Shown in pieces: positions 1,090-39,381 of a stretch of DNA of 39,381 bases (positions are counted from its first letter, which is position 1; each line of letters begins with the position of its first letter). A model generated the notes under the pieces. The model was not told the origin of the DNA. It did not search any database and worked only from the letters and a program-made list of their open reading frames with translations. The DNA lies in the NCBI GenBank assembly GCA_031549365.1, contig JAVBPX010000011.1:1-39381 (forward strand), in the 5' to 3' direction. Source of the stretch: Alphaproteobacteria bacterium (lineage in GTDB: Bacteria; Pseudomonadota; Alphaproteobacteria; Rs-D84). Both the position numbers and the translations under genes were made by a program.

Positions 1090-1587
1090 CTACTGGTTAT
1101 CTATTTTTTCTTGTATGAACAGATTGAAATAACCATTGTACTTTTCTTGTAATGCCTTAATCTTCCAGTCTTTACCGGTTATGATATGTCTACAATTCGG
1201 CACCCCGCAATGACACTCCATAGTCCAATCCATATCATCAATCATTGCATAATCCTGTGTTAATTCTTCACCTGCGGAAATATCTCGCATAGCAACGACG
1301 GCAATTTGACCGTGACACCCGCAATTAGGGTCACATGAGTGGTTGATATAAATTTTCAAGTTTTCCGCCTCATCTTTTGACAGAGTGCCTAAGAAATAAT
1401 CATCAGAAATGGACCAAAACGATCCATCTCCATAATCCGTAAGTCCCACATATTTTTGAGATATAATATGGCCAGCTTTAATAGCAACAATCTCTCCTCT
1501 TTTGATAGATTCTTTCGCAAAAGAACCTTTTCCAGCAATAGCGTTATCACGAATTTCTATTTTGTCTGAATGAAAACTTTTTAGCAT
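1090..1587 (-). CDS. SET domain protein-lysine methyltransferase with post-SET Zn motif
   Basis: GKGSFA, INHSCDPN, ELTQDY and post-SET CHCGVPNCR motifs; AGGAGG RBS upstream. Confidence 0.92.
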   Translation of the reverse strand: MLKSFHSDKIEIRDNAIAGKGSFAKESIKRGEIVAIKAGHIISQKYVGLTDYGDGSFWSISDDYFLGTLSKDEAENLKIYINHSCDPNCGCHGQIAVVAMRDISAGEELTQDYAMIDDMDWTMECHCGVPNCRHIITGKDWKIKALQEKYNGYFNLFIQEKIDNQ

Positions 1588-1869
1588 TGGAATCCTCCTG
1601 TTTTATTAAGGTAATTATATCATAGATAAGGTATTTGGGGAAATCAAATTTTCTTAATGAAGTCAGCACAACTTATCAAGTCATCAGCTCGTGAACCGCA
1701 AGCAATCTCCAACCAACAAATACAGGTGTCAAATTTTTGTGACACGGGTCAGCACCACCAAGCATTTGGCAAGGTCCGAAAGCCATCCGCCAAAAATCAA
1801 CAAATTACACTAACATTCGGACTGTTTTGTGTTACAATACAACGGAGAACCAAACAAAAGGGCAAATCT

Positions 1870-5524: not shown

Positions 5525-6778
5525 ATGACCGAAGACAAAAAACAAGACGCCGCCGAACAAAAAACGTGCTCATTTTGCGGAAAATCTCAGTTCGAAGTCA
5601 AAAAACTTGTCGCAGGACCTTCTGTATATATCTGCGACGAATGTATTTCCCTTTGCTCGGACATAATGTCCGAAGATCGCAAACGCAAATCCACCTCGGA
5701 ATTGAAAAACCTGCCAACTCCATCAAAAATTTTCAATTTCTTAAACGAATATATCATTGGTCAGGATAACGCAAAAAAAACTCTCTCTGTCGCTGTTTAC
5801 AATCACTATAAACGTCATTCTGCGGGTAACGTTGGCGACGTTGAAATCCAAAAATCGAACATTATGTTAATCGGCCCAACGGGAACTGGAAAAACTCTGT
5901 TTGCTCAAACCCTGGCTCGTGTTTTGGATGTTCCATTTGCAATTGCCGACGCGACTACACTGACCGAGGCGGGCTACGTCGGCGACGACGTTGAAAACAT
6001 CCTGACGCGCTTACTCCAAAGTGCGAATTACGATCTTGAACGTGCCCAGCGCGGAATAATTTACATCGACGAAATTGATAAAATCGCCCGCAAATCTGAA
6101 AACCCATCACTAACACGTGACGTATCTGGCGAAGGCGTTCAACAAGCCCTATTAAAATTAATCGAAGGCACAACCGCCATGGTTCCACCCCAGGGTGGGC
6201 GCAAACACCCGCAACAGGAATTAATCGCTCTTAACACTTCTGGCATCCTGTTTATTTGCGGCGGGGCATTTGACGGGCTTCAAAAAATTATCGCATCCCG
6301 CACAAACGAACGTGCCGGCATGGGATTTGGCGCATCTGTATCATCAAAATCGGAACGCACCGATAACACAAAATTATCAGACGTCGAAACTGGGGACTTG
6401 GTAAAATTCGGAATTATCCCTGAATTAATCGGCCGCTTGCCAATCATTACAACTTTGACTGAATTGGACGAACCGGCATTGATTCAAATTTTAACTGAAC
6501 CAAAAAATGCGATTGTAAAACAATACGCGGCCATGTTCGCCGTCGAAGGGGTAACATTAACAATAACCGATGATGCCCTGCACGCAATCGCAGCATTGGC
6601 ATTAAAACGCAAAACTGGTGCACGCGGTCTCCGTTCAATTTTGGAAACTGTATTATTACAACCAATGTTTGACGCCCCGGATCGTCCGGAATTATCATCT
6701 GTTGTGATAAACGCGGACGTCATCAACGGAAAATCAGAACCATTATTGGTATTTTCCGACACAAAAAAACAAGCCTAA
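5525..6778 (+). CDS. clpX: Clp protease ATP-binding subunit
   Basis: Zn finger CSFCGK...ICDECI, Walker [33 protein letters not shown]. Confidence 0.98.
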
Positions 6779-6806
6779 CGGATAATTACATAAAATCTAA
6801 ACTCAA

Positions 6807-6898
6807 AAAAATCGCCACTGAATTATTTCTGACATCTGAAAATCGAGATTGCTATTCAAAAATTAATTCCTTTCCTGGGTCGGTTTCACGCGATTTTA
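6807..6898 (+). repeat. degenerate family B element abutting the OMP stop codon
   Basis: Right end TCACGCGATTTTA matches the family B end at 18156-18167; left end AAAATCGC..GAATTAT; central core missing. Confidence 0.45.
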
Positions 6899-7702
6899 AA
6901 ACAGAACACGTGCGCCCAATCTAAACTCTGGCGCAAATAATCTGGCTTCAACTTCTGCCCTGTTCCCATTAACACTTATAATTTCATCATACTTCGGCAT
7001 GGCGGTAAAAGTCTGATCAATCGTGATACTAAACGAATCGGTCAAATCATATTCCAATCCAAAAATTGCTCGCACTGAAAATCCCGAAACAGAACTATTT
7101 AAATCCAAATTCCAATTTGCAGCACCAAATCCTGCACCAACTTTGGCGGATAAATTTGGGACTACATAATACCCATAAATTGCATCTATATACATTGAAA
7201 AAACATACCCATCATATCTATACAAATCGCCCAAAATTGTATATTTTCCGTCAAAATTATGAAAATTTAAATCCAACCCAATGTCAAAATATTGCCGTTT
7301 TGGTTCCGATCCAATATAATTGCGCACGCCATAGGCAACATAAATCCCAATGTTATCGGAAATTGTACTGAATGAATCAAAATCAACACCATTAACTTCT
7401 GCTTTCATATCCAAATCTGGCTTTTCATACACAGACAATCCAAACTTGGCAAAAGTCCGGCGTTTTTCACCCGAATAATCTAAAATATATTTATCTTGAT
7501 CAACTTTTATCGACTTAATCTCAACAATTTCTACTTTGGTTGGAACATCACCCTCAACCATGGTCACTTTTTCTGGTAACATTTCTGTAACTTCAACTGT
7601 ATGCGTTAATACAACCTTTGGCTTACTTTCTTTTGCATTTTCGGCCCCAGCCCCCGAAACCATCAATCCAATCAAGCCACCCGCCAATAAAATCTTTTTC
7701 AT
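6896..7702 (-). CDS. outer membrane beta-barrel protein (OmpA/Opa/porin-like)
   Basis: Start moved to MKKILLAGG (signal peptide); alternating beta-strand pattern; C-terminal RLGARVLF ending in Phe. Confidence 0.8.
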   Translation of the reverse strand: MKKILLAGGLIGLMVSGAGAENAKESKPKVVLTHTVEVTEMLPEKVTMVEGDVPTKVEIVEIKSIKVDQDKYILDYSGEKRRTFAKFGLSVYEKPDLDMKAEVNGVDFDSFSTISDNIGIYVAYGVRNYIGSEPKRQYFDIGLDLNFHNFDGKYTILGDLYRYDGYVFSMYIDAIYGYYVVPNLSAKVGAGFGAANWNLDLNSSVSGFSVRAIFGLEYDLTDSFSITIDQTFTAMPKYDEIISVNGNRAEVEARLFAPEFRLGARVLF

Positions 7703-7849
7703 ATCGCATCCATCAATAATTTTATTTTTGTCATTGCGACCGCCGGCACAGCAATATCCGCAATTTTCAACATTATACCAACATCCACATAAAACTTGCA
7801 ACTCCCATTTCAATATGCCAAAATGGCTTGAAACAAACGGAAAGCAAAA

Positions 7850-9085
7850 ATGGCAAAATTTAAATCAGACTTTTTAAACGACATGAACGAACGTGGTTTT
7901 ATATACCAATGCTCGGACTTTGACGGCCTGGATAACGCACTAAAATCTGGCTCTGTTACTGCATACTTGGGCTCCGACCCAACAGCCGACAGCTTGCACA
8001 CCGGGCACTTAATCCCAGTAATGTTAATGCGCTGGTTTCAAAAATATGGCAATAAGCCAATATTGTTGGCGGGCGGCGCGACTGGCCGAATTGGTGACCC
8101 CTCTGGCCGCGATACATCGCGCCCAATGTTAACGAACGCTGATATTGAAAAAAATGTTGCTGGATTAAAACAATCATACTCACAATTTATGAAATTTGGA
8201 ACAGGCGAAACCGACGCCATAATTGTTGATAATTACGACTGGTTTAAAAATTTCGGATATATTGATTTTTTACGCGATTACGGCACTCATTTTACAGTAC
8301 CTCGAATGTTATCGATGGAGAGTGTAAAACGTCGTCTGGACAACGGCATGACCTTTTTGGAATTTAATTACATGATCTTACAGGCTGTTGATTTTCTGAC
8401 CCTATTTCAAAAACACAACTGCGCCCTGCAATTATGTGGTGCCGATCAATGGGGCAATTGCATTATGGGCGTTGAATTAATTCGTCGCAAATTGGGTGAA
8501 ACTGCATATTGTTTATCAACATCATTGTTAATGGATGCATCCGGAAATAAAATCGGAAAATCTGCGGGCAACGCAACCTGGGTGCGCGCAGATAAAACAT
8601 CCCCGTATGATTACTATCAATCATTCCGAAACGTTGCAGATTCTGATGTAATAAAAATGATGAAAATTTACACAGACCTCCCAATGTCCGAAATCAAAAA
8701 AATGGAAAACATTGGCGGCTCTGAAATCAATGAACTGAAAAAAATCTTGGCCTGGAACGCAACCATGATTGCACACGGCGACGTGGCCGCAACGGACGCA
8801 CAAAACGCAGCCATTGCAATGTTTGAATCTGGTGTTGCACTTGATTCGATTCCATCATATACAATGGAAAATGTTGCGCCTATTGGATTGCTTTCATTAA
8901 TGGTCCATGCAAAATTATCCGGGACAAACTCGGACGCCAGACGCCTGGTTATGGAACACGCGGTAAAAATTGATGATAACATCATCGACGATCCAAAATA
9001 CATTATTGACCCATCTTCATTTGATGAAAATTATTTTGTATTATCAGTCGGCAAAAAGAAACACCTAAAAATAAATATAAAATAA
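7850..9085 (+). CDS. tyrS: tyrosine--tRNA ligase
   Basis: DPTADSLHTGH (HIGH), EFNY, GADQWGN, KIGKS (KMSKS), C-terminal S4-like domain. Confidence 0.97.
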   Translation: MAKFKSDFLNDMNERGFIYQCSDFDGLDNALKSGSVTAYLGSDPTADSLHTGHLIPVMLMRWFQKYGNKPILLAGGATGRIGDPSGRDTSRPMLTNADIEKNVAGLKQSYSQFMKFGTGETDAIIVDNYDWFKNFGYIDFLRDYGTHFTVPRMLSMESVKRRLDNGMTFLEFNYMILQAVDFLTLFQKHNCALQLCGADQWGNCIMGVELIRRKLGETAYCLSTSLLMDASGNKIGKSAGNATWVRADKTSPYDYYQSFRNVADSDVIKMMKIYTDLPMSEIKKMENIGGSEINELKKILAWNATMIAHGDVAATDAQNAAIAMFESGVALDSIPSYTMENVAPIGLLSLMVHAKLSGTNSDARRLVMEHAVKIDDNIIDDPKYIIDPSSFDENYFVLSVGKKKHLKINIK

Positions 9086-9091
9086 AAAATC

Positions 9092-10891
9092 ATGTCTCAA
9101 AAATTAATACGGAATTTTTCTATCGTCGCACATATTGACCATGGCAAATCAACCCTGGCCGATCGCTTAATTGAATTCACTGGCGGCCTTGACTGTCGCG
9201 AAATGAAGTGCCAGGTTTTGGATTCAATGGACATTGAACGCGAACGCGGCATTACGATCAAGGCTCAAACCGTCCGTTTATCATACAGGGCCAAAGACGG
9301 CGAAACATACCAATTAAATTTGATGGACACTCCTGGCCACGTGGATTTCACGTACGAGGTTTCAAGATCATTGGCCGCCTGCGAGGGCGCACTATTGGTT
9401 GTCGACGCAGCCCAGGGTGTCCAGGCTCAAACCCTGGCGAACGCATACCTTGCAATCGACAATGATTTGGAAATTATTCCAGTATTAAATAAAATTGATT
9501 TACCATCATCGGACGTTGAATCCGCAAAACAACAAATAACCGAGGTTATCGGCATCGATGCCACAAACGCAATTTCCGTATCTGGCAAAACCGGCATGGG
9601 CATCCCCGATGTATTGGAAGCAATCGTAACAATGCTCCCACCTCCTCACGGCGATGAATCCGCACCAACCCGTGCTCTCTTGGTCGACAGCTGGTATGAT
9701 GCTTACTTGGGCGTTGTAATTCTGGTACGCGTTGTGGACGGTGAATTACATCGCGGACAAATGATTCGCTTTATGAAATCCGGCGTTGATTATAAAATCG
9801 ACCGCGTTGGTGTATTTACTCCAAAAATGATTTCAACAGACGTACTTAAAACGGGCGAGGTTGGATTTATCATAACCGGCATGAAAACGATTCATGATTG
9901 TAAAATTGGGGACACTCTGGTTGATGTAAAATCAACTGGCATTGAACCCTTGCCTGGCTTTAAGCCATCAATTCCAGTTGTCTTTTCATCCTTTTTCCCG
10001 GTCGAGGCTGACGAATACCCAAAATTAAAGGAAGCCGCGGAAAAATTATCCCTAAACGACGCATCATTTTCATATCAAACTGAAAATTCATCTGCCTTGG
10101 GCTTTGGGCTTCGCTGCGGATTTTTGGGATTATTGCACATGGAAATTATTTCCGAACGCCTATCTCGTGAATTCGATTTAAATTTGATTACAACTGTACC
10201 ATCCGTTCGTTATCGCTTGGAATTAAATAATTGCACGGATATGGATTTGCATAATCCATCCGACATGCCAGACCCAACATATATCAAAACAATTTATGAA
10301 CCATGGGTACGCGCAACCATTATTATGCCTGATACTTATGTTGGAAACATTTTGGGTCTTTGCACTGAACGTCGCGGGGTCCAGGAAACTTTGACATACA
10401 TCGGCACCCGCGTAATGGTTGTTTATAAATTACCATTGGCCGAGGTTGTCTTTGATTTCTACGACCGAGTGAAAAGTTTGTCCCAGGGTTACGCCAGCTT
10501 TGATTATGATTTAATCGGCTATGAACCATCTGATTTGGTCAAGGTTACAATCCTGGTCAACGGTGAAAACATCGACCCATTGTCGTTTCTGTGCCATAAA
10601 TCATCTGCCGAACAACGGGGCCGCGCAATTGTTACAAAATTAAAGGATTTAATCCCACGCCACCAATTCAAAATCCCGATTCAGGCGGCCATTGGCGGAC
10701 GCATAATCGCGCGCGAAACCATCGCCGCATTTTCCAAGGACGTAACGGCAAAATGCTATGGCGGGGACGCAACCCGTAAACGCAAATTGCTTGAAAAGCA
10801 AAAGGCCGGAAAAAAACGTATGCGCTCATTTGGCAACGTTGAAATCCCACAATCGGCATTTATCAACGCTCTCAAAATCGACAATAAATAA
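9092..10891 (+). CDS. lepA: elongation factor 4 (LepA)
   Basis: [53 protein letters not shown]. Confidence 0.99.
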
Positions 10892-11056
10892 TCTGATATG
10901 ATAAAACTACAACACCCATTCTCGGGCGTATCCTATTTATTTGTAGATCCTCTATCAATTATGCGGATCTTTGCGCCTAAATTTGTCATTGCGATGATTC
11001 ACGACCCCGCGGCAATCTTTATCTCGGCGAGACGAAGCACAGACGGATCTTCGCCA

Positions 11057-11420
11057 CACCAGACTTAAACACAAAATCAAAGGCGTTGCGGAATTTGCAC
11101 TCGCAAATTCCCATGACACAACGGCTTCCAAAGAACCAGTATCAAAAACCAAAAAAGAAAAATAAATATAATCAACACCGGACTTAATTCAAACCAAAAG
11201 AACATTTCGAAAATTTGTTTACCAAATTTTCCGTGACAAAATGTTCTCCAAATAATCTAAACCAAAAAAAAGAATAACAAATATAATCAACACCAATCTT
11301 AAACTCAAAATCAAAGGCGTTGCGGAATTTGCACTCGCAAATTCCCGTGACACAACGCCTTCCCACTAACCAGAAAAAGCCCAAAGAATAATAAATATAA
11401 TAAACACCTGACTTAAATCA
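11057..11420. repeat. family C structured repeat, tandem array (three full units plus the 5' box of a fourth; period ~114-119 bp)
   Basis: CACC.GACTTAA-like boxes at 11057, 11176, 11291 and 11405; each full unit is P1-CG-P2-loop-P2'-CCRTGACA-P1'. Confidence 0.9.
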
Positions 11421-11446
11421 ACACAAAATAACACGGAAACAAAATC

Positions 11447-12301
11447 ATGAAAAAACAATTTATCGGAATATCATACGGACGCGGCGGATGTAAAATCCCA
11501 TCAAACACTGGCTGCGAACTTGGCCCGCGCGAAATACAAAAAATGTATCCGAATTACGATTGGACCATCATCGAACCAACCTGGCCATTTGATTTTGAAA
11601 AATTACAATCGGACCGCTTTGGCGAAAATATCAAAATGCAAAAAATAATTTATGATGCATGCGTAAACCGCGATCCAAACCATATATTTATCGGCGGCGA
11701 CCACAGCGTTAATTTCGCCCACTTTAAATCAATCCGCGATAACTTGAACAACGATGACATCTGTTTAATTTATATCGACGCCCACTTTGATATCCACACT
11801 CCGGAATCCAGTATGGCAGAGGCTTCCGGCTCACCTCATGGCACAAACGTGCGCCAACTATTGGGATTTGGCGACGAACGATATTTATCCCTCGGCAATT
11901 CCCGCGCGCCATTAAAATCTGAAAACTTATTTTTCATTGGCCCTCGTTCATACGAACCGGCGGAATTGGAATTCATAAAATCACAAAACATTTTTACAAC
12001 CGATAATTCAAAAATAAACGACCAAAATTATTTGAATGAAACAATAAAACATATACGTGAAAAAATCGGTGATAAAAAATTCGTAATATCATTTGACTTC
12101 GACGCAATCGATGAATCCGAATTTGACGCTGTCCAGGTGCCAGAACCAAACGGCCTCACCCTAAAAAACCTGGAATATTTACTGAACAATTTGATAACCG
12201 AAAATATGATTTCATGCGAATTGGTTGAATACGCCCCATTAATGTCGCGTGATGAAAAATCAAAATCCACGGTCCAAAAAATCATCAACAAATTTTTATA
12301 A
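11447..12301 (+). CDS. arginase/agmatinase (ureohydrolase) family protein
   Basis: GGDHS, IDAHFD, SGSPHG, SFDFDAID metal-binding motifs, EYAP. Confidence 0.9.
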   Translation: MKKQFIGISYGRGGCKIPSNTGCELGPREIQKMYPNYDWTIIEPTWPFDFEKLQSDRFGENIKMQKIIYDACVNRDPNHIFIGGDHSVNFAHFKSIRDNLNNDDICLIYIDAHFDIHTPESSMAEASGSPHGTNVRQLLGFGDERYLSLGNSRAPLKSENLFFIGPRSYEPAELEFIKSQNIFTTDNSKINDQNYLNETIKHIREKIGDKKFVISFDFDAIDESEFDAVQVPEPNGLTLKNLEYLLNNLITENMISCELVEYAPLMSRDEKSKSTVQKIINKFL

Positions 12302-12309
12302 AAAATATC

Positions 12310-12398
12310 CACGCCGGACGCCAGCACATCCAAAAGAACATTTCGAAAAATCATTATATGATTTTTCCGTGACAAAATGTTCTCCAAATAACTTGAAC
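12310..12398. repeat. family C structured repeat, single copy
   Basis: AGAACATTT-CG-AAAAATCAT-tat-ATGATTTTT-CCGTGACA-AAATGTTCT at 12335-12383. Confidence 0.88.
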
Positions 12399-12414
12399 AA
12401 ATCCATAAAAACAT

Positions 12415-12440
12415 AAAAATCGGCCCAATCCGGCCGAAAA
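12415..12440 (-). terminator. intrinsic terminator of the 13124-12445 two-gene operon
   Basis: TCGGCC/GGCCGA hairpin followed by a T-run on the minus strand. Confidence 0.6.
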
Positions 12441-12444
12441 CGAA

Positions 12445-12780
12445 TCATTTTTTTGAAATCCGTTTATACAATTGATCCGGGGTCCAAACGAACGGCCACC
12501 ACACACCAATTGATTTTTTTGCAAACCCGACACACGTCATCACGCTCGGCCGCACCGAACATTTGCTGCACACAGAAACAGACACCAAAACCCACCCGGC
12601 GGCAACTAATCGATCCTCGACACTGTTATCCATCTGAAACAATCTGACGCGATCCAATCCAACTTGGATGACAACATTTGAATCATAATCCAACACCATA
12701 CAGTGACGAAAATTTCGACATAAAATTTTCACCCACCAAATTGATGTTTGTTTTGAAAAAGCAATCTTAACAATTTTCAT
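12445..12780 (-). CDS. hypothetical protein with a permuted papain/NlpC-P60-like motif order (111 aa)
   Basis: Start at ATG 12780 overlapping the upstream stop (ATGA); FRHC ... TCV ... WTPDQLY pattern places His before Cys. Confidence 0.7.
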   Translation of the reverse strand: MKIVKIAFSKQTSIWWVKILCRNFRHCMVLDYDSNVVIQVGLDRVRLFQMDNSVEDRLVAAGWVLVSVSVCSKCSVRPSVMTCVGFAKKSIGVWWPFVWTPDQLYKRISKK

Positions 12781-13124
12781 GACACCCAACCTTTTATTTT
12801 TGCCCATTCGCCCAACGTCACCATTGCATCGTTCCATAATTTTGCATCACGCCTCTGCCTAAATTCGCGATCATCAGGAACGCGTTGTCGTTCTCCATAC
12901 GAAATCAAAATTGCAATTTGCTCTCGACTAATTTTTTGTGATAACACCAACTTGGTAATTAATGCTTCAACGTCCACCAATTCGCAAGGCCGAAAGCTTG
13001 AATAATCGCCTCGCCTTTGCAATCCATTTCTTACTTTTTTACAATACATAAACCATAACCATAAATCTTCGGCGGATAAAAATAACCCCTCTGATTTCAA
13101 ACATTCGTTTCCATAATAACCCAT
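12777..13124 (-). CDS. conserved alphaproteobacterial hypothetical protein (115 aa)
   Basis: Start at MGYYGNE after AGGAGAG; FxSAEDLWLWF...RPCE...YG...LW pattern recalled from Rhodospirillales hypothetical proteins. Confidence 0.7.
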   Translation of the reverse strand: MGYYGNECLKSEGLFLSAEDLWLWFMYCKKVRNGLQRRGDYSSFRPCELVDVEALITKLVLSQKISREQIAILISYGERQRVPDDREFRQRRDAKLWNDAMVTLGEWAKIKGWVS

Positions 13125-13589: not shown

Positions 13590-13870
13590 TATTGTCATCC
13601 GGATCGCGCAGCCGAGAGGATCCAGTAAAACAAACGTTGCGACAGCAACTTTTTATTATCATCCCTCAGGAATCAGGTCCCCGCGTCAATCCCAACAATA
13701 TAAATAATATGTCATCCCTCGGGAATCACAACTCTGCACCAATCATTTCAATTAAAAACCATCTCGCCCCAACGGGGAGAGATAATAAAACATATGATCT
13801 TTGATCATCATGTTTTATAGAGAGGGGGAAAATAAACCATTGCAACACAATTGTCATTGCAATTAAAAAC
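13590..13870 (+). repeat. mosaic repeat cluster (family A hairpins plus a family E element at 13742-13843)
   Basis: 13742-13843 differs from 15-116 at about 3 positions; shares TTGCGACAGCAACTTTTTATT, GGATCCAGTAAAACAAACGTT and TCAGGAATCA.GTCCC.GCG modules with other clusters. Confidence 0.9.
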
Positions 13871-17157: not shown

Positions 17158-17287
17158 AATATGCCTTGGTCCAGTGTGCCGACTGGACCAAATTTTTAAT
17201 TTTTTCGGGACGATGTGTATATGAACATACATGAGTTTCGAAAAAATTAAAAACTTTCGTTCAATGCGGACCGCTGGCCGAGATACC
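17158..17287 (+). repeat. family B core nested in a CCAGT-GTGCCG-ACTGG hairpin element, abutting the engB stop
   Basis: Stem TTTTTAATTTTTTCGGGAC/GTTTCGAAAAAATTAAAAA around core GTGTATATGAACATACATGA; flanks match 29468-29506. Confidence 0.8.
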
Positions 17288-17907: not shown

Positions 17908-18041
17908 CCTAATCCTCTTTTATTTAATCTTTCTAAATTATTCTACACCAAGCTTTATAAACTCAAAAGAAAATTTTCTCTAAACAACCTAAATCAACCC
18001 CTATTAATTTAACTCAACACGCCTACTATCTATTCCGACAC

Positions 18042-18167
18042 AAATCGCGTCAGAATACGATGATTATAAAGAATTTTTAAATTTTTTGGCCCGCGGTTTA
18101 TATGAACATAAATAAGGGTCGAAAAATTTAAAAACTTGTTCATAGGCGCGTATTATCACGCGATTTA
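18042..18167 (+). repeat. family B element ending in the rsmI stop codon
   Basis: Arms AAATCGCGT/ACGCGATTT, AATACG/CGTATT, TTTTTAAATTTTTTGGCC/GGTCGAAAAATTTAAAAA; core TTTATATGAACATAAATAA. Confidence 0.88.
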
Positions 18168-24318: not shown

Positions 24319-24353
24319 ATCCAAAACAAACACATCCCTATCAAATAATTCCA

Positions 24354-24440
24354 CACCTGACTTAAATCAATATGCCACGAACTCCGCGAATTTTGTTTCA
24401 CAAAATTCCGTGACACAATGTTCTCATAAATAATCAGAAC
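24354..24440. repeat. family C structured repeat, single copy
   Basis: CACCTGACTTAA...GAACTCCG-CG-AATTTTGT-ttc-ACAAAATT-CCGTGACA-CAATGTTC...TAATCAGAAC. Confidence 0.85.
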
Positions 24441-24546
24441 AGGCCCAACCAAATAACCAAAATTATAAAAAACAAATTCTGATTGCCATCCAATCTCAAA
24501 AGTGCTAGCCTGCTATCGTGGATAAAAATCATCACAAGGAAAAACT

Positions 24547-25747: not shown

Positions 25748-25875
25748 AAAATGTGTCAGAATTATGTAGTTACAAAGAATTTATCCCATTTTTGGGACCG
25801 CTGTGTACATGAACATACATAAGGTTCCAAAAATGGGATAAACTTGTTGGCAAATGCGTGATTATCACACGATTT
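25748..25875 (+). repeat. family B element overlapping the xth 3' end
   Basis: Stem TTTATCCCATTTTTGGGACC/GGTTCCAAAAATGGGATAAA; core GTGTACATGAACATACATAA; the right arm contains the xth stop. Confidence 0.88.
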
Positions 25876-30341: not shown

Positions 30342-30467
30342 TAAAACGCATCAAAATGTGATGATTATAAAGAATTATTTCATTTTTAGGTGCGCGGTGT
30401 ATATAAACATACATAAGCATCTAAAAATGAAATAACTTGTTTATAGGCGCACATTTTCATGCGTTTA
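30342..30467 (+). repeat. family B element ending in the stop of the 30465 gene
   Basis: Arms AAACGCAT/ATGCGTTT, AAATGTG/CACATTT, TTATTTCATTTTTAGGTGC/GCATCTAAAAATGAAATAA; core GTGTATATAAACATACATAA. Confidence 0.88.
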
Positions 30468-36183: not shown

Positions 36184-36304
36184 TTCAATCTCCATTTTTT
36201 GCTTAGCAGCACTGAATGTATCACAAAAAATCATTTTGTCAACCAAATATTTCCGGATAAAAAATATCCTAGCTAAAATCACCTGAACTAATAAAAATAG
36301 TCCG

Positions 36305-36390
36305 CACCGGTCTTAAAAATAAAACACGGTTGGCGCGAAACTCGTTTTATAATTTTCCGTGACACGCCAACCGCTCAATAATTAAACCCA
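36305..36390. repeat. family C structured repeat, single copy with a third P1 sequence
   Basis: CACCGGTCTTAA...CGGTTGGCG-CG-...-CCGTGACA-CGCCAACCG. Confidence 0.85.
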
Positions 36391-36402
36391 AACTATAAAA
36401 AA

Positions 36403-39131: not shown

Positions 39132-39381
39132 GTCATTCTGGGGCATATTCGAAAGAATCCTGTAAAAAACCATCGCAACACAATGTATTATGTCATTACT
39201 CAGGAATCACGTCCCTGCGGCAATCTTTATCTCGGCGAAACAACGTGCAGATGGATCATTGCAATTAAAACCCATCTCGCCCCAACGGGGAGAGATAATA
39301 AAACATATGATCTTCGATCATCATGTTTTATAGAGAGGGGGAAAATAAACCATTGCGACAGCAACTTTTTATTGTCATCCC
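39131..39381 (+). repeat. mosaic repeat cluster including the right 141-bp terminal direct repeat (39241-39381)
   Basis: Family A copies at 39131, 39191 and 39373; GCGGCAATCTTTATCTCGGCGA shared with 11009-11030; family E element. Confidence 0.93.

Follow-up and report, generated by a model that had tools for sequence, protein, structure and literature searches.

A structured, strand-polarised repeat, probably a lineage-specific palindromic DNA element, in a 0.9-Mb alphaproteobacterial genome

Copies of the repeat in the window and in the genome

The window analysed here is the entire contig C3 (39,381 nucleotides), one of the 15 contigs of an alphaproteobacterial genome of 911,163 bases that is 97.6% complete. 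It carries several copies of a repeat of about 115 bases, here called Family C, some of them in a tandem array just ahead of an arginase-family gene. Read on its A/C-rich top strand, the unit consists of an AT-rich stretch, a CACC-N4-TTAA box, a spacer of 9–12 nt, a stem P1 of 9 bp, a single C, a second stem P2 of 8–9 bp with a loop of 3–8 nt, a CRTGACA bulge, the returning strand P1′ and a short CYNNAKAAY tail. P2 has a conserved GAA/TTC base and a variable tip, and P1 occurs in at least six unrelated sequences within the family. The genome was searched with a covariance model (R1) built from 13 copies. The features found in the window are as follows.

10996..11054, + strand: end of a different repeat family (D14), abutting copy 1; from a repeat search, 15 loci in the genome
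11041..11156, + strand: copy 1, stem type A (P1 AAGGCGTTG, one mismatch); R1 E 4.2e-14
11160..11276, + strand: copy 2, stem type B (P1 AGAACATTT); R1 E 2.7e-16
11275..11390, + strand: copy 3, stem type A, perfect P1; R1 E 1.0e-14
11389..11452, + strand: box without hairpin (AT-rich stretch and CACCTGACTTAA), closing the array; weak R1 match, E 0.55
12296..12412, + strand: copy 4, type B P1 with a different P2 and a degenerate box; R1 E 2.2e-15
17930..18008, + strand: remnant, a box-like sequence and a collapsed mini-palindrome GAAAATTTTC; weak R1 match, E 0.46
24338..24453, + strand: copy 5, 5′ half of P1 degenerate, P2 intact; R1 E 8.4e-11
36289..36402, + strand: copy 6, P1 CGGTTGGCG, degenerate P2; R1 E 5.5e-12

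All six copies that the preliminary description had placed in the window are present, and the P1 stems quoted there (AAGGCGTTG/CAACGCCTT, AGAACATTT/AAATGTTCT and CGGTTGGCG/CGCCAACCG) and the P2 variants listed there are correct. The pattern CACC-N4-TTAA-N35-55-YCRTGACA matches the window five times, against 0 expected from 100 shuffles; it misses the copy at 12310 because the box of that copy is degenerate. The mismatch in P1 belongs to the copy at 11057, and the copies at 24354 and 36305 are partly degenerate.

Copy 1 opens the tandem array; in place of its left AT-rich part stands the end of another repeat family. Family D14 also abuts the array of contig C10, and Family C adjoins another repeat family at three loci. 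The hairpin of copy 2 is identical to that of two C10 copies at 49/49 positions. The box that closes the window array (PWM score 19.5, p ~0.001) lies just before the start of the arginase-family gene at 11447, and copy 4 begins 5 nt before the stop of that gene. Both tandem arrays, in the window and on C10, have the form (box-hairpin-tail)n-box with an extra box at the close and a period of ~115 nt, and stem types A and B follow each other in the same order at two loci. At the end of the C10 array (L001 ~1490–1600, minus strand, G000:C10) there is a third box; a P2-like hairpin, AAAATCG/CGATTTT, comes after it, and the box core then recurs in inverted orientation.

In the whole genome the model yields 13 full copies (E ≤ 5.8e-10), of which six are on C3 (+), four on C10 (−), one on C12 (+) and two on C15 (−). 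Two short variants, at C11:793 and C15:82997 (E 6.7e-7 and 5.8e-6), keep box, P1 and tail without P2 and the bulge, and three weak remnants have E values of 0.06–0.55. All matches together make up ~14 loci on six contigs. The six occupied contigs are all strongly skewed in base composition, and no match falls on C1, C6, C7 or C14.

Other repeats were seen in the window. Positions 1–141 are identical to 39241–39381, so that the two contig ends are the same, and the sequence recurs at 13728–13868; it belongs to a repeat family of 29 loci, many copies of which lie at contig ends (C4, C8–C13, C15). The assembly breaks at this repeat, and the identical ends of the window are probably no evidence of a circle. 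A second structured family lies at 17191–17256, 18072–18137, 25779–25844 and 30373–30438, with upstream partners at 18039, 22295, 25745 and 30340. It is designed as Family C is, with a covarying outer stem around a conserved core (about GTGTATATGAACATACAT), and 13 of its 14 genome loci have the same strand polarity as Family C.

Structure and covariation

The structure, the covariation and the conserved junction claimed in the preliminary description were all borne out. In the model-fitted alignment 91% of the cells pair and both sides vary in 13 of the 18 base pairs. Its covariation score of 0.505, which none of 500 shuffles reaches, compares with 0.18 for shuffled alignments and falls to 0.136 or less when the partners are slid against each other. 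A MAFFT alignment, which is not fitted to the structure, has 83% of cells paired, 12 of 18 pairs changing on both sides and a score of 0.377 against 0.193 shuffled (0/500 shuffles reach 0.377). RNAalifold predicts no pairs on the MAFFT alignment of the hairpins alone, because 4–7 of its rows are out of register. The junction is the best-conserved part of the unit, with a mean pairwise identity of 0.92, compared with 0.47 for the 5′ half of P1.

The earlier hint that the minus strand is the one that folds was not substantiated: there are four G.U pairs on the plus strand and three on the minus strand, and neither strand is favoured. Folded as DNA, both strands of the intact copies are equally stable (z −2.9 to −6.1 against shuffles). 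On the bottom strand the two helices stack, and GTCACG is left as a clean bulge of 6 nt. By eye, the junction was rejected as a kink-turn or a loop-E motif, since the loop lengths are inconsistent and the basal G-C pair of P2 covaries.

Among copies of one stem type, the hairpin has diverged much less than its surroundings. For type B it is identical at 49/49 positions in all three pairs, with 24–32/38 in the left flank and 15–16/29 in the right flank; for type A the figures are 44–46/48, 25–29/39 and 15–18/29. Such a distribution is unexpected under simple copy-and-paste of the whole unit and hints that selection or gene conversion is at work or that the hairpin moves by itself. Almost invariant hairpins in diverged flanks could possibly result from selection on the hairpin, from gene conversion between hairpins, or from exchange between older scaffolds.

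Neighbouring genes and the copy in truB

Family C is co-directional with its neighbouring genes at four loci and antisense to them at six. The co-directional loci are the window array (lepA / arginase-family gene), 12296, 24338 and the C10 array upstream of ruvA; the antisense loci are mlaC, rph, efp, the uppS-cdsA spacer, truB and one more. Copy 6 takes up the space between mlaC and another gene, both on the minus strand, and is antisense to the two.

The truB locus is the sole intragenic one and holds one of the 13 copies. This copy, C15:81801, lies antisense and in frame within an intact truB frame of 386 codons, between the TruB_N and TruB_C_2 domains. In an alignment of four orthologues the matches of the relatives skip query residues ~157–220. 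The turn at which the insertion lies has ~3–15 residues in relatives and in a solved TruB, the latter having 3 residues where the product here has 57. The Family C element contributes 38 of the extra residues, and the remaining extra residues at the turn have no repeat elsewhere in the genome. The insertion shows that the flanks travel together with the hairpin. Read in the truB frame, each of the other ten full copies examined contains at least one stop; the family is therefore not inherently coding and has no conserved peptide. No empty-site polymorphism was seen. One genome carries the family, and we therefore infer its mobility from this single gene insertion. The same TruB product has a second lineage-specific segment at residues ~266–315 (L004:2120–2340), near its C-terminal part, which is not repeated elsewhere in the genome.

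A related sister genus (genome G004) carries an unrelated palindromic insert of 243 nt at the same turn of truB (L262:1948–2190). About 150 nt of it form a near-perfect palindrome, and the whole insert has an RNA fold energy of −84 kcal/mol. The insert is made of two repeat families, parts of which recur 48 times in that genome; across the other three genomes of the genus they give one weak match. With the query's own locus left out, 44 of 47 copies share the majority orientation of their contig, the local GC skew of the 3-kb loci being too weak for an assignment of polarity.

Replication-strand polarity

In all 18 copies and remnants the A/C-rich top strand lies on the locally C-rich, lagging strand. 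A sign test gives ~1e-4 when counted per locus (~14 independent loci) and 0.03 when counted per contig (six contigs). The cumulative GC-skew minimum on C15 lies beside gidB-parA-parB (L414 = G000:C15:58000–72000, ~6190–10000), which is likely the replication origin region; dnaA is elsewhere, at C14:120337–120816. The G-rich strand carries 346 of 559 genes (62%), and the skew minimum lies beside gidB-parAB; both agree with the usual assignment of the G-rich strand as the leading one, and the G/T-rich bottom strand of the element would therefore lie on the lagging-strand template. The orientation bias expected for insertion into that template, as used for REP/RAYT and IS200/IS605, is thus seen in 18 of 18 cases.

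This polarity belongs to the whole genome and not to Family C alone. Six other repeat segments taken from the window have the same polarity at 13/14, 13/14, 17/17, 29/29, 15/15 and 4/4 loci. We know of no report on the strand polarity of Rickettsia palindromic elements (RPEs). The absolute GC skew is ~0.2–0.3 on C3, C4, C8–C13 and the end of C15 and ~0.05–0.13 on C1, C6, C7 and C14. It is unusually strong and uneven, and Family C and all 29 loci of the contig-end repeat are confined to the strongly skewed contigs.

The box was also compared with known replication-associated sites. It was rejected as a DnaA box, with no cluster near dnaA and no enrichment pattern, and also as a dif half-site, since the best dif-like sequence in the genome (~C6:2450, minus strand) is unrelated. 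That sequence has an inner palindrome, a 6-nt centre and eight mismatches to the classical 28-mer.

Search for RNA families, expression signals and relatives

At gathering score the only Rfam match in the window is a tRNA, and Family C has none. A relaxed search of 10900–12450 gave four matches with E 1.8–6.2, at 17–21 bits against thresholds of 50–72. No conserved promoter or terminator was found within Family C: the top strand has no U-tract terminator 3′ of the hairpin, and there is no conserved upstream −35 element. A reading of the unit as a promoter/terminator module was rejected, as only the tandem copies have promoter-like hexamers, and these on the bottom strand (9/12 matches). Beside copy 4, the gene at 12445–12837 has a terminator-like hairpin of its own. 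Of the words in the 4-kb stretch that was searched, 26% occur in one metatranscriptome run, whose sparse contigs lie in gene bodies and are uninformative over the repeats.

Among 60 relatives within the family and order the full covariance model found no match. A hairpin-only model gave weak matches in five of 150 other genomes of the order (E 2.5e-4 to 7.2e-3); they are chance-like and none is convincing. Two are in apparent coding sequence, one is an unrelated perfect palindrome, and none has the box, tail or junction context. In loose pattern scans of genome and metagenome contigs, none of the 236 listed matches that were screened for P1 pairing has the layout of the family, and a scan of viral contigs with the P2/junction pattern gave 119 loci, the best of which is a chance-like partial hairpin. 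By its LepA and TruB homologues the organism belongs in the Alphaproteobacteria; LepA is 77–79% identical to proteins of metagenome-assembled genomes labelled Alphaproteobacteria. A limited literature search found no description of such repeats in the lineage; the main text of a genomics paper on gut Hepatincolaceae, possibly another lineage, mentions neither palindromes nor transposition.

Mobilising enzymes and membership of known classes

An HUH or reverse-transcriptase gene, of the kind raised in the preliminary description, was sought in the genome and not found, and neither was an integron integrase. Y1_Tnp (Y1 HUH) has no match in the genome, with a positive control in 6 of 14 genomes, and RVT_1, rve, DDE_Tnp_1, IS110, Relaxase and TrwC have none in this 97.6% complete assembly. 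Y2_Tnp has no match, its controls being equally silent, and the TnpB zinc-ribbon model gives a match below cut-off only. Three tyrosine recombinases are present, one XerC-like, one XerD-like and one divergent, and integron-integrase models score far below their cut-offs on all three. The divergent one, a protein of 362 aa (L257:880–1965, G000:C15:48241–49326), weakly resembles tyrosine recombinases, at ~31 bits to XerD models, and on its sequence is a candidate unusual recombinase.

Family C was rejected as a member of attC or REP: the searches found no integron integrase, no Y1/RAYT gene and no core motif that defines either class. The stem base lacks the conserved core sites that pair with each other in attC, P1 there having at least six unrelated sequences. 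The terminal inverted repeats of a classical MITE are likewise absent. P1 and P1′ are internal, with ~40 nt on the box side and ~10–26 nt of tail outside them, and these outer parts are not mutually complementary. No parent insertion sequence with a transposase was found (rve, DDE_Tnp_1 and IS110, 0 matches in a 97.6% complete genome, a missing contig being possible), and at the variable boundaries no consistent short direct repeat was seen that would mark a target-site duplication. A PWM test for a second box is significant at the two array ends (p ~0.001) and at the single copy C10:23335 (p = 0.007), and 7 of the 8 full single copies have no significant second box (p ≥ 0.08). A target box downstream of single copies was rejected on this test, save at C10:23335.

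Interpretation

We consider Family C to be, with somewhat better than even probability, a lineage-specific, non-coding interspersed palindromic DNA repeat without a transposase of its own, and not an RNA gene. Its kin by kind, on the best reading, would be the Rickettsia palindromic elements, ERIC and REP/BIME. Tandem arrays, the abutting of other repeats and derivatives without P2 are repeat-like behaviour, and given its fixed orientation relative to replication and the copy in frame within truB, the repeat has the look of selfish DNA, probably copied as a folded single strand. The common polarity of the repeats, together with the presence of Family C and of the unrelated G004 repeat in frame at the same turn of truB, points to a replication-coupled, single-strand mechanism.

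The mechanism that we find likeliest acts at the fork, and we hold it more tentatively, as something that may perhaps apply. The G/T-rich bottom strand, on the lagging-strand template, would be exposed single-stranded at the fork and could fold into the P1–P2 hairpin, with GTCACG as its 6-nt bulge. Acting in trans, a structure-specific nuclease or recombinase might read the bulged junction and the nearby box and ignore the stem sequence; insertion or copying into the single-stranded template would then fix the orientation relative to replication. The single-stranded intermediate and its enzyme are what we infer, and the bulged hairpin with its box offers concrete substrates for tests of the mechanism.

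The preliminary description had left two alternatives, a functional RNA and a folded single-stranded DNA site. The second gains support from the 18/18 polarity, and the first is weakened by the lack of an Rfam match, the mixed gene orientation, the truB copy, the lack of a promoter or terminator and the absence from relatives. A structured RNA, either a family of small RNA genes or a cis-acting mRNA element in which a protein or another RNA would read the conserved 1×7 internal loop (C opposite CRUGACA), would account for the strong compensatory covariation in both stems, for the junction being conserved at 0.92 against 0.47 for the 5′ half of P1, and for folds more stable than shuffles; strong covariation with conserved junctions is, as a caution, not enough to identify an RNA. 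We think this very improbable, given that Rfam has no match at gathering score, that the unit is antisense to its neighbours at six of ten loci with one copy within a coding frame, that the top strand has neither a U-tract terminator nor a conserved −35 element, that four G.U against three A.C give no strand signal, that none was found in the relatives searched, and that an 18/18 replication polarity is unexpected for RNA genes where genes are 62% biased. We also give very little credence to the box as a site-specific recombination site between copies of which hairpin units are exchanged as cassettes by a tyrosine recombinase, so that the arrays would resemble integron or neisserial mosaic arrays. 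The closing box of both (box-hairpin-tail)n-box arrays, the A–B order shared by two loci, the near-identical hairpins in diverged flanks and the presence of XerC, XerD and one divergent tyrosine-recombinase-like gene would all agree with such exchange. However, the genome has no integron integrase, the best dif-like site is unrelated to the box, the box lacks dyad symmetry, and a significant second box is missing from 7 of the 8 full single copies (p ≥ 0.08; C10:23335, p = 0.007).

A conserved junction and box with free stems would also fit a host function. Family C could be a DNA site that depends on replication direction and is kept by selection, for example a hairpin on the lagging template at which replication is primed or restarted, or a site bound by a nucleoid, segregation or repair protein. 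The perfect strand polarity, the conservation of box and junction at the motif level, the identity of hairpins within a type despite diverged flanks and the position outside genes at all loci but one are what such a site would show. Its limitation to one genus-level lineage among at least 150 genomes searched argues against it, as do the small number of loci (~14, on six strongly skewed contigs, with none on C1, C6, C7 and C14), the same polarity in unrelated repeat families, the interruption of truB by one copy, and the existence of decayed and internally deleted copies. We judge a host site unlikely, though less so than an RNA or a recombination cassette, and return to the repeat without a transposase as the preferred reading.

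An extension of that reading, which we likewise regard as unlikely, is that Family C and the other strand-locked repeats of this genome form a new class of fork-targeted hairpin elements moved by an enzyme that belongs to none of the known HUH, DDE and reverse-transcriptase families; host replication or repair proteins and the divergent tyrosine recombinase could be candidates. On the lagging-strand template this enzyme would read the bulged junction together with the nearby box, and the variable stems would be free passengers or local DNA copied at insertion. A genome of 0.9 Mb with several unrelated repeat families, all of near-perfect replication-strand polarity, bears on a wider question, the still unexplained spread of orphan palindromic repeats that lack a transposase, foremost among them the Rickettsia elements. 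If the extension were true, this lineage could show how they spread.

Comparison with known systems

In behaviour Family C is like the RPEs, which are also palindromic repeats of 100–150 bp in a reduced alphaproteobacterial genome with no known transposase (PMC10969869). In-frame gene insertions are reported for these Rickettsia elements, in housekeeping genes (PMC10969869), as Family C is inserted in truB; Family C differs in having one of 13 copies intragenic and no conserved peptide.

The ends of IS200/IS605 elements, their gene-less derivatives and REP/BIME with RAYT are imperfect hairpins with unpaired bases, as is Family C (PMC6006769, PMC5027513). In IS200/IS605 and REP/BIME the folded single-stranded DNA is read, with a conserved sequence at a fixed distance from the foot of the hairpin (PMC6006769, PMC5027513), and a corresponding reading of single-stranded DNA may hold for Family C. 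Insertion into the lagging-strand template is described for IS608 and ISDra2 (PMC6006769). Unlike these systems, the genome with Family C has no Y1 gene and each unit has one hairpin, not two ends; unlike REP, there are no inverted REP pairs, the stems vary freely and the bulge is of 6–7 nt. Integron attC sites also combine conserved extrahelical bases with variable stems and occur in arrays, and recognition of structure, as in attC, would be conceivable for Family C, which by contrast has no integron integrase, no paired core sites and no cassette genes, and a period of ~115 nt.

ERIC and the pneumococcal BOX, RUP and SPRITE repeats are likewise intergenic, structured and present in long and short forms, nested or clustered with other families (PMC10969869); such clustering and nesting is reported for BOX, RUP and SPRITE in particular (PMC10969869). 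ERIC is occasionally intragenic (PMC10969869), as Family C is in truB. The ERIC, BOX, RUP and SPRITE repeats extend across bacterial families and are usually discussed as transcribed, whereas Family C occurs in a single lineage and keeps one orientation relative to the replication strand.
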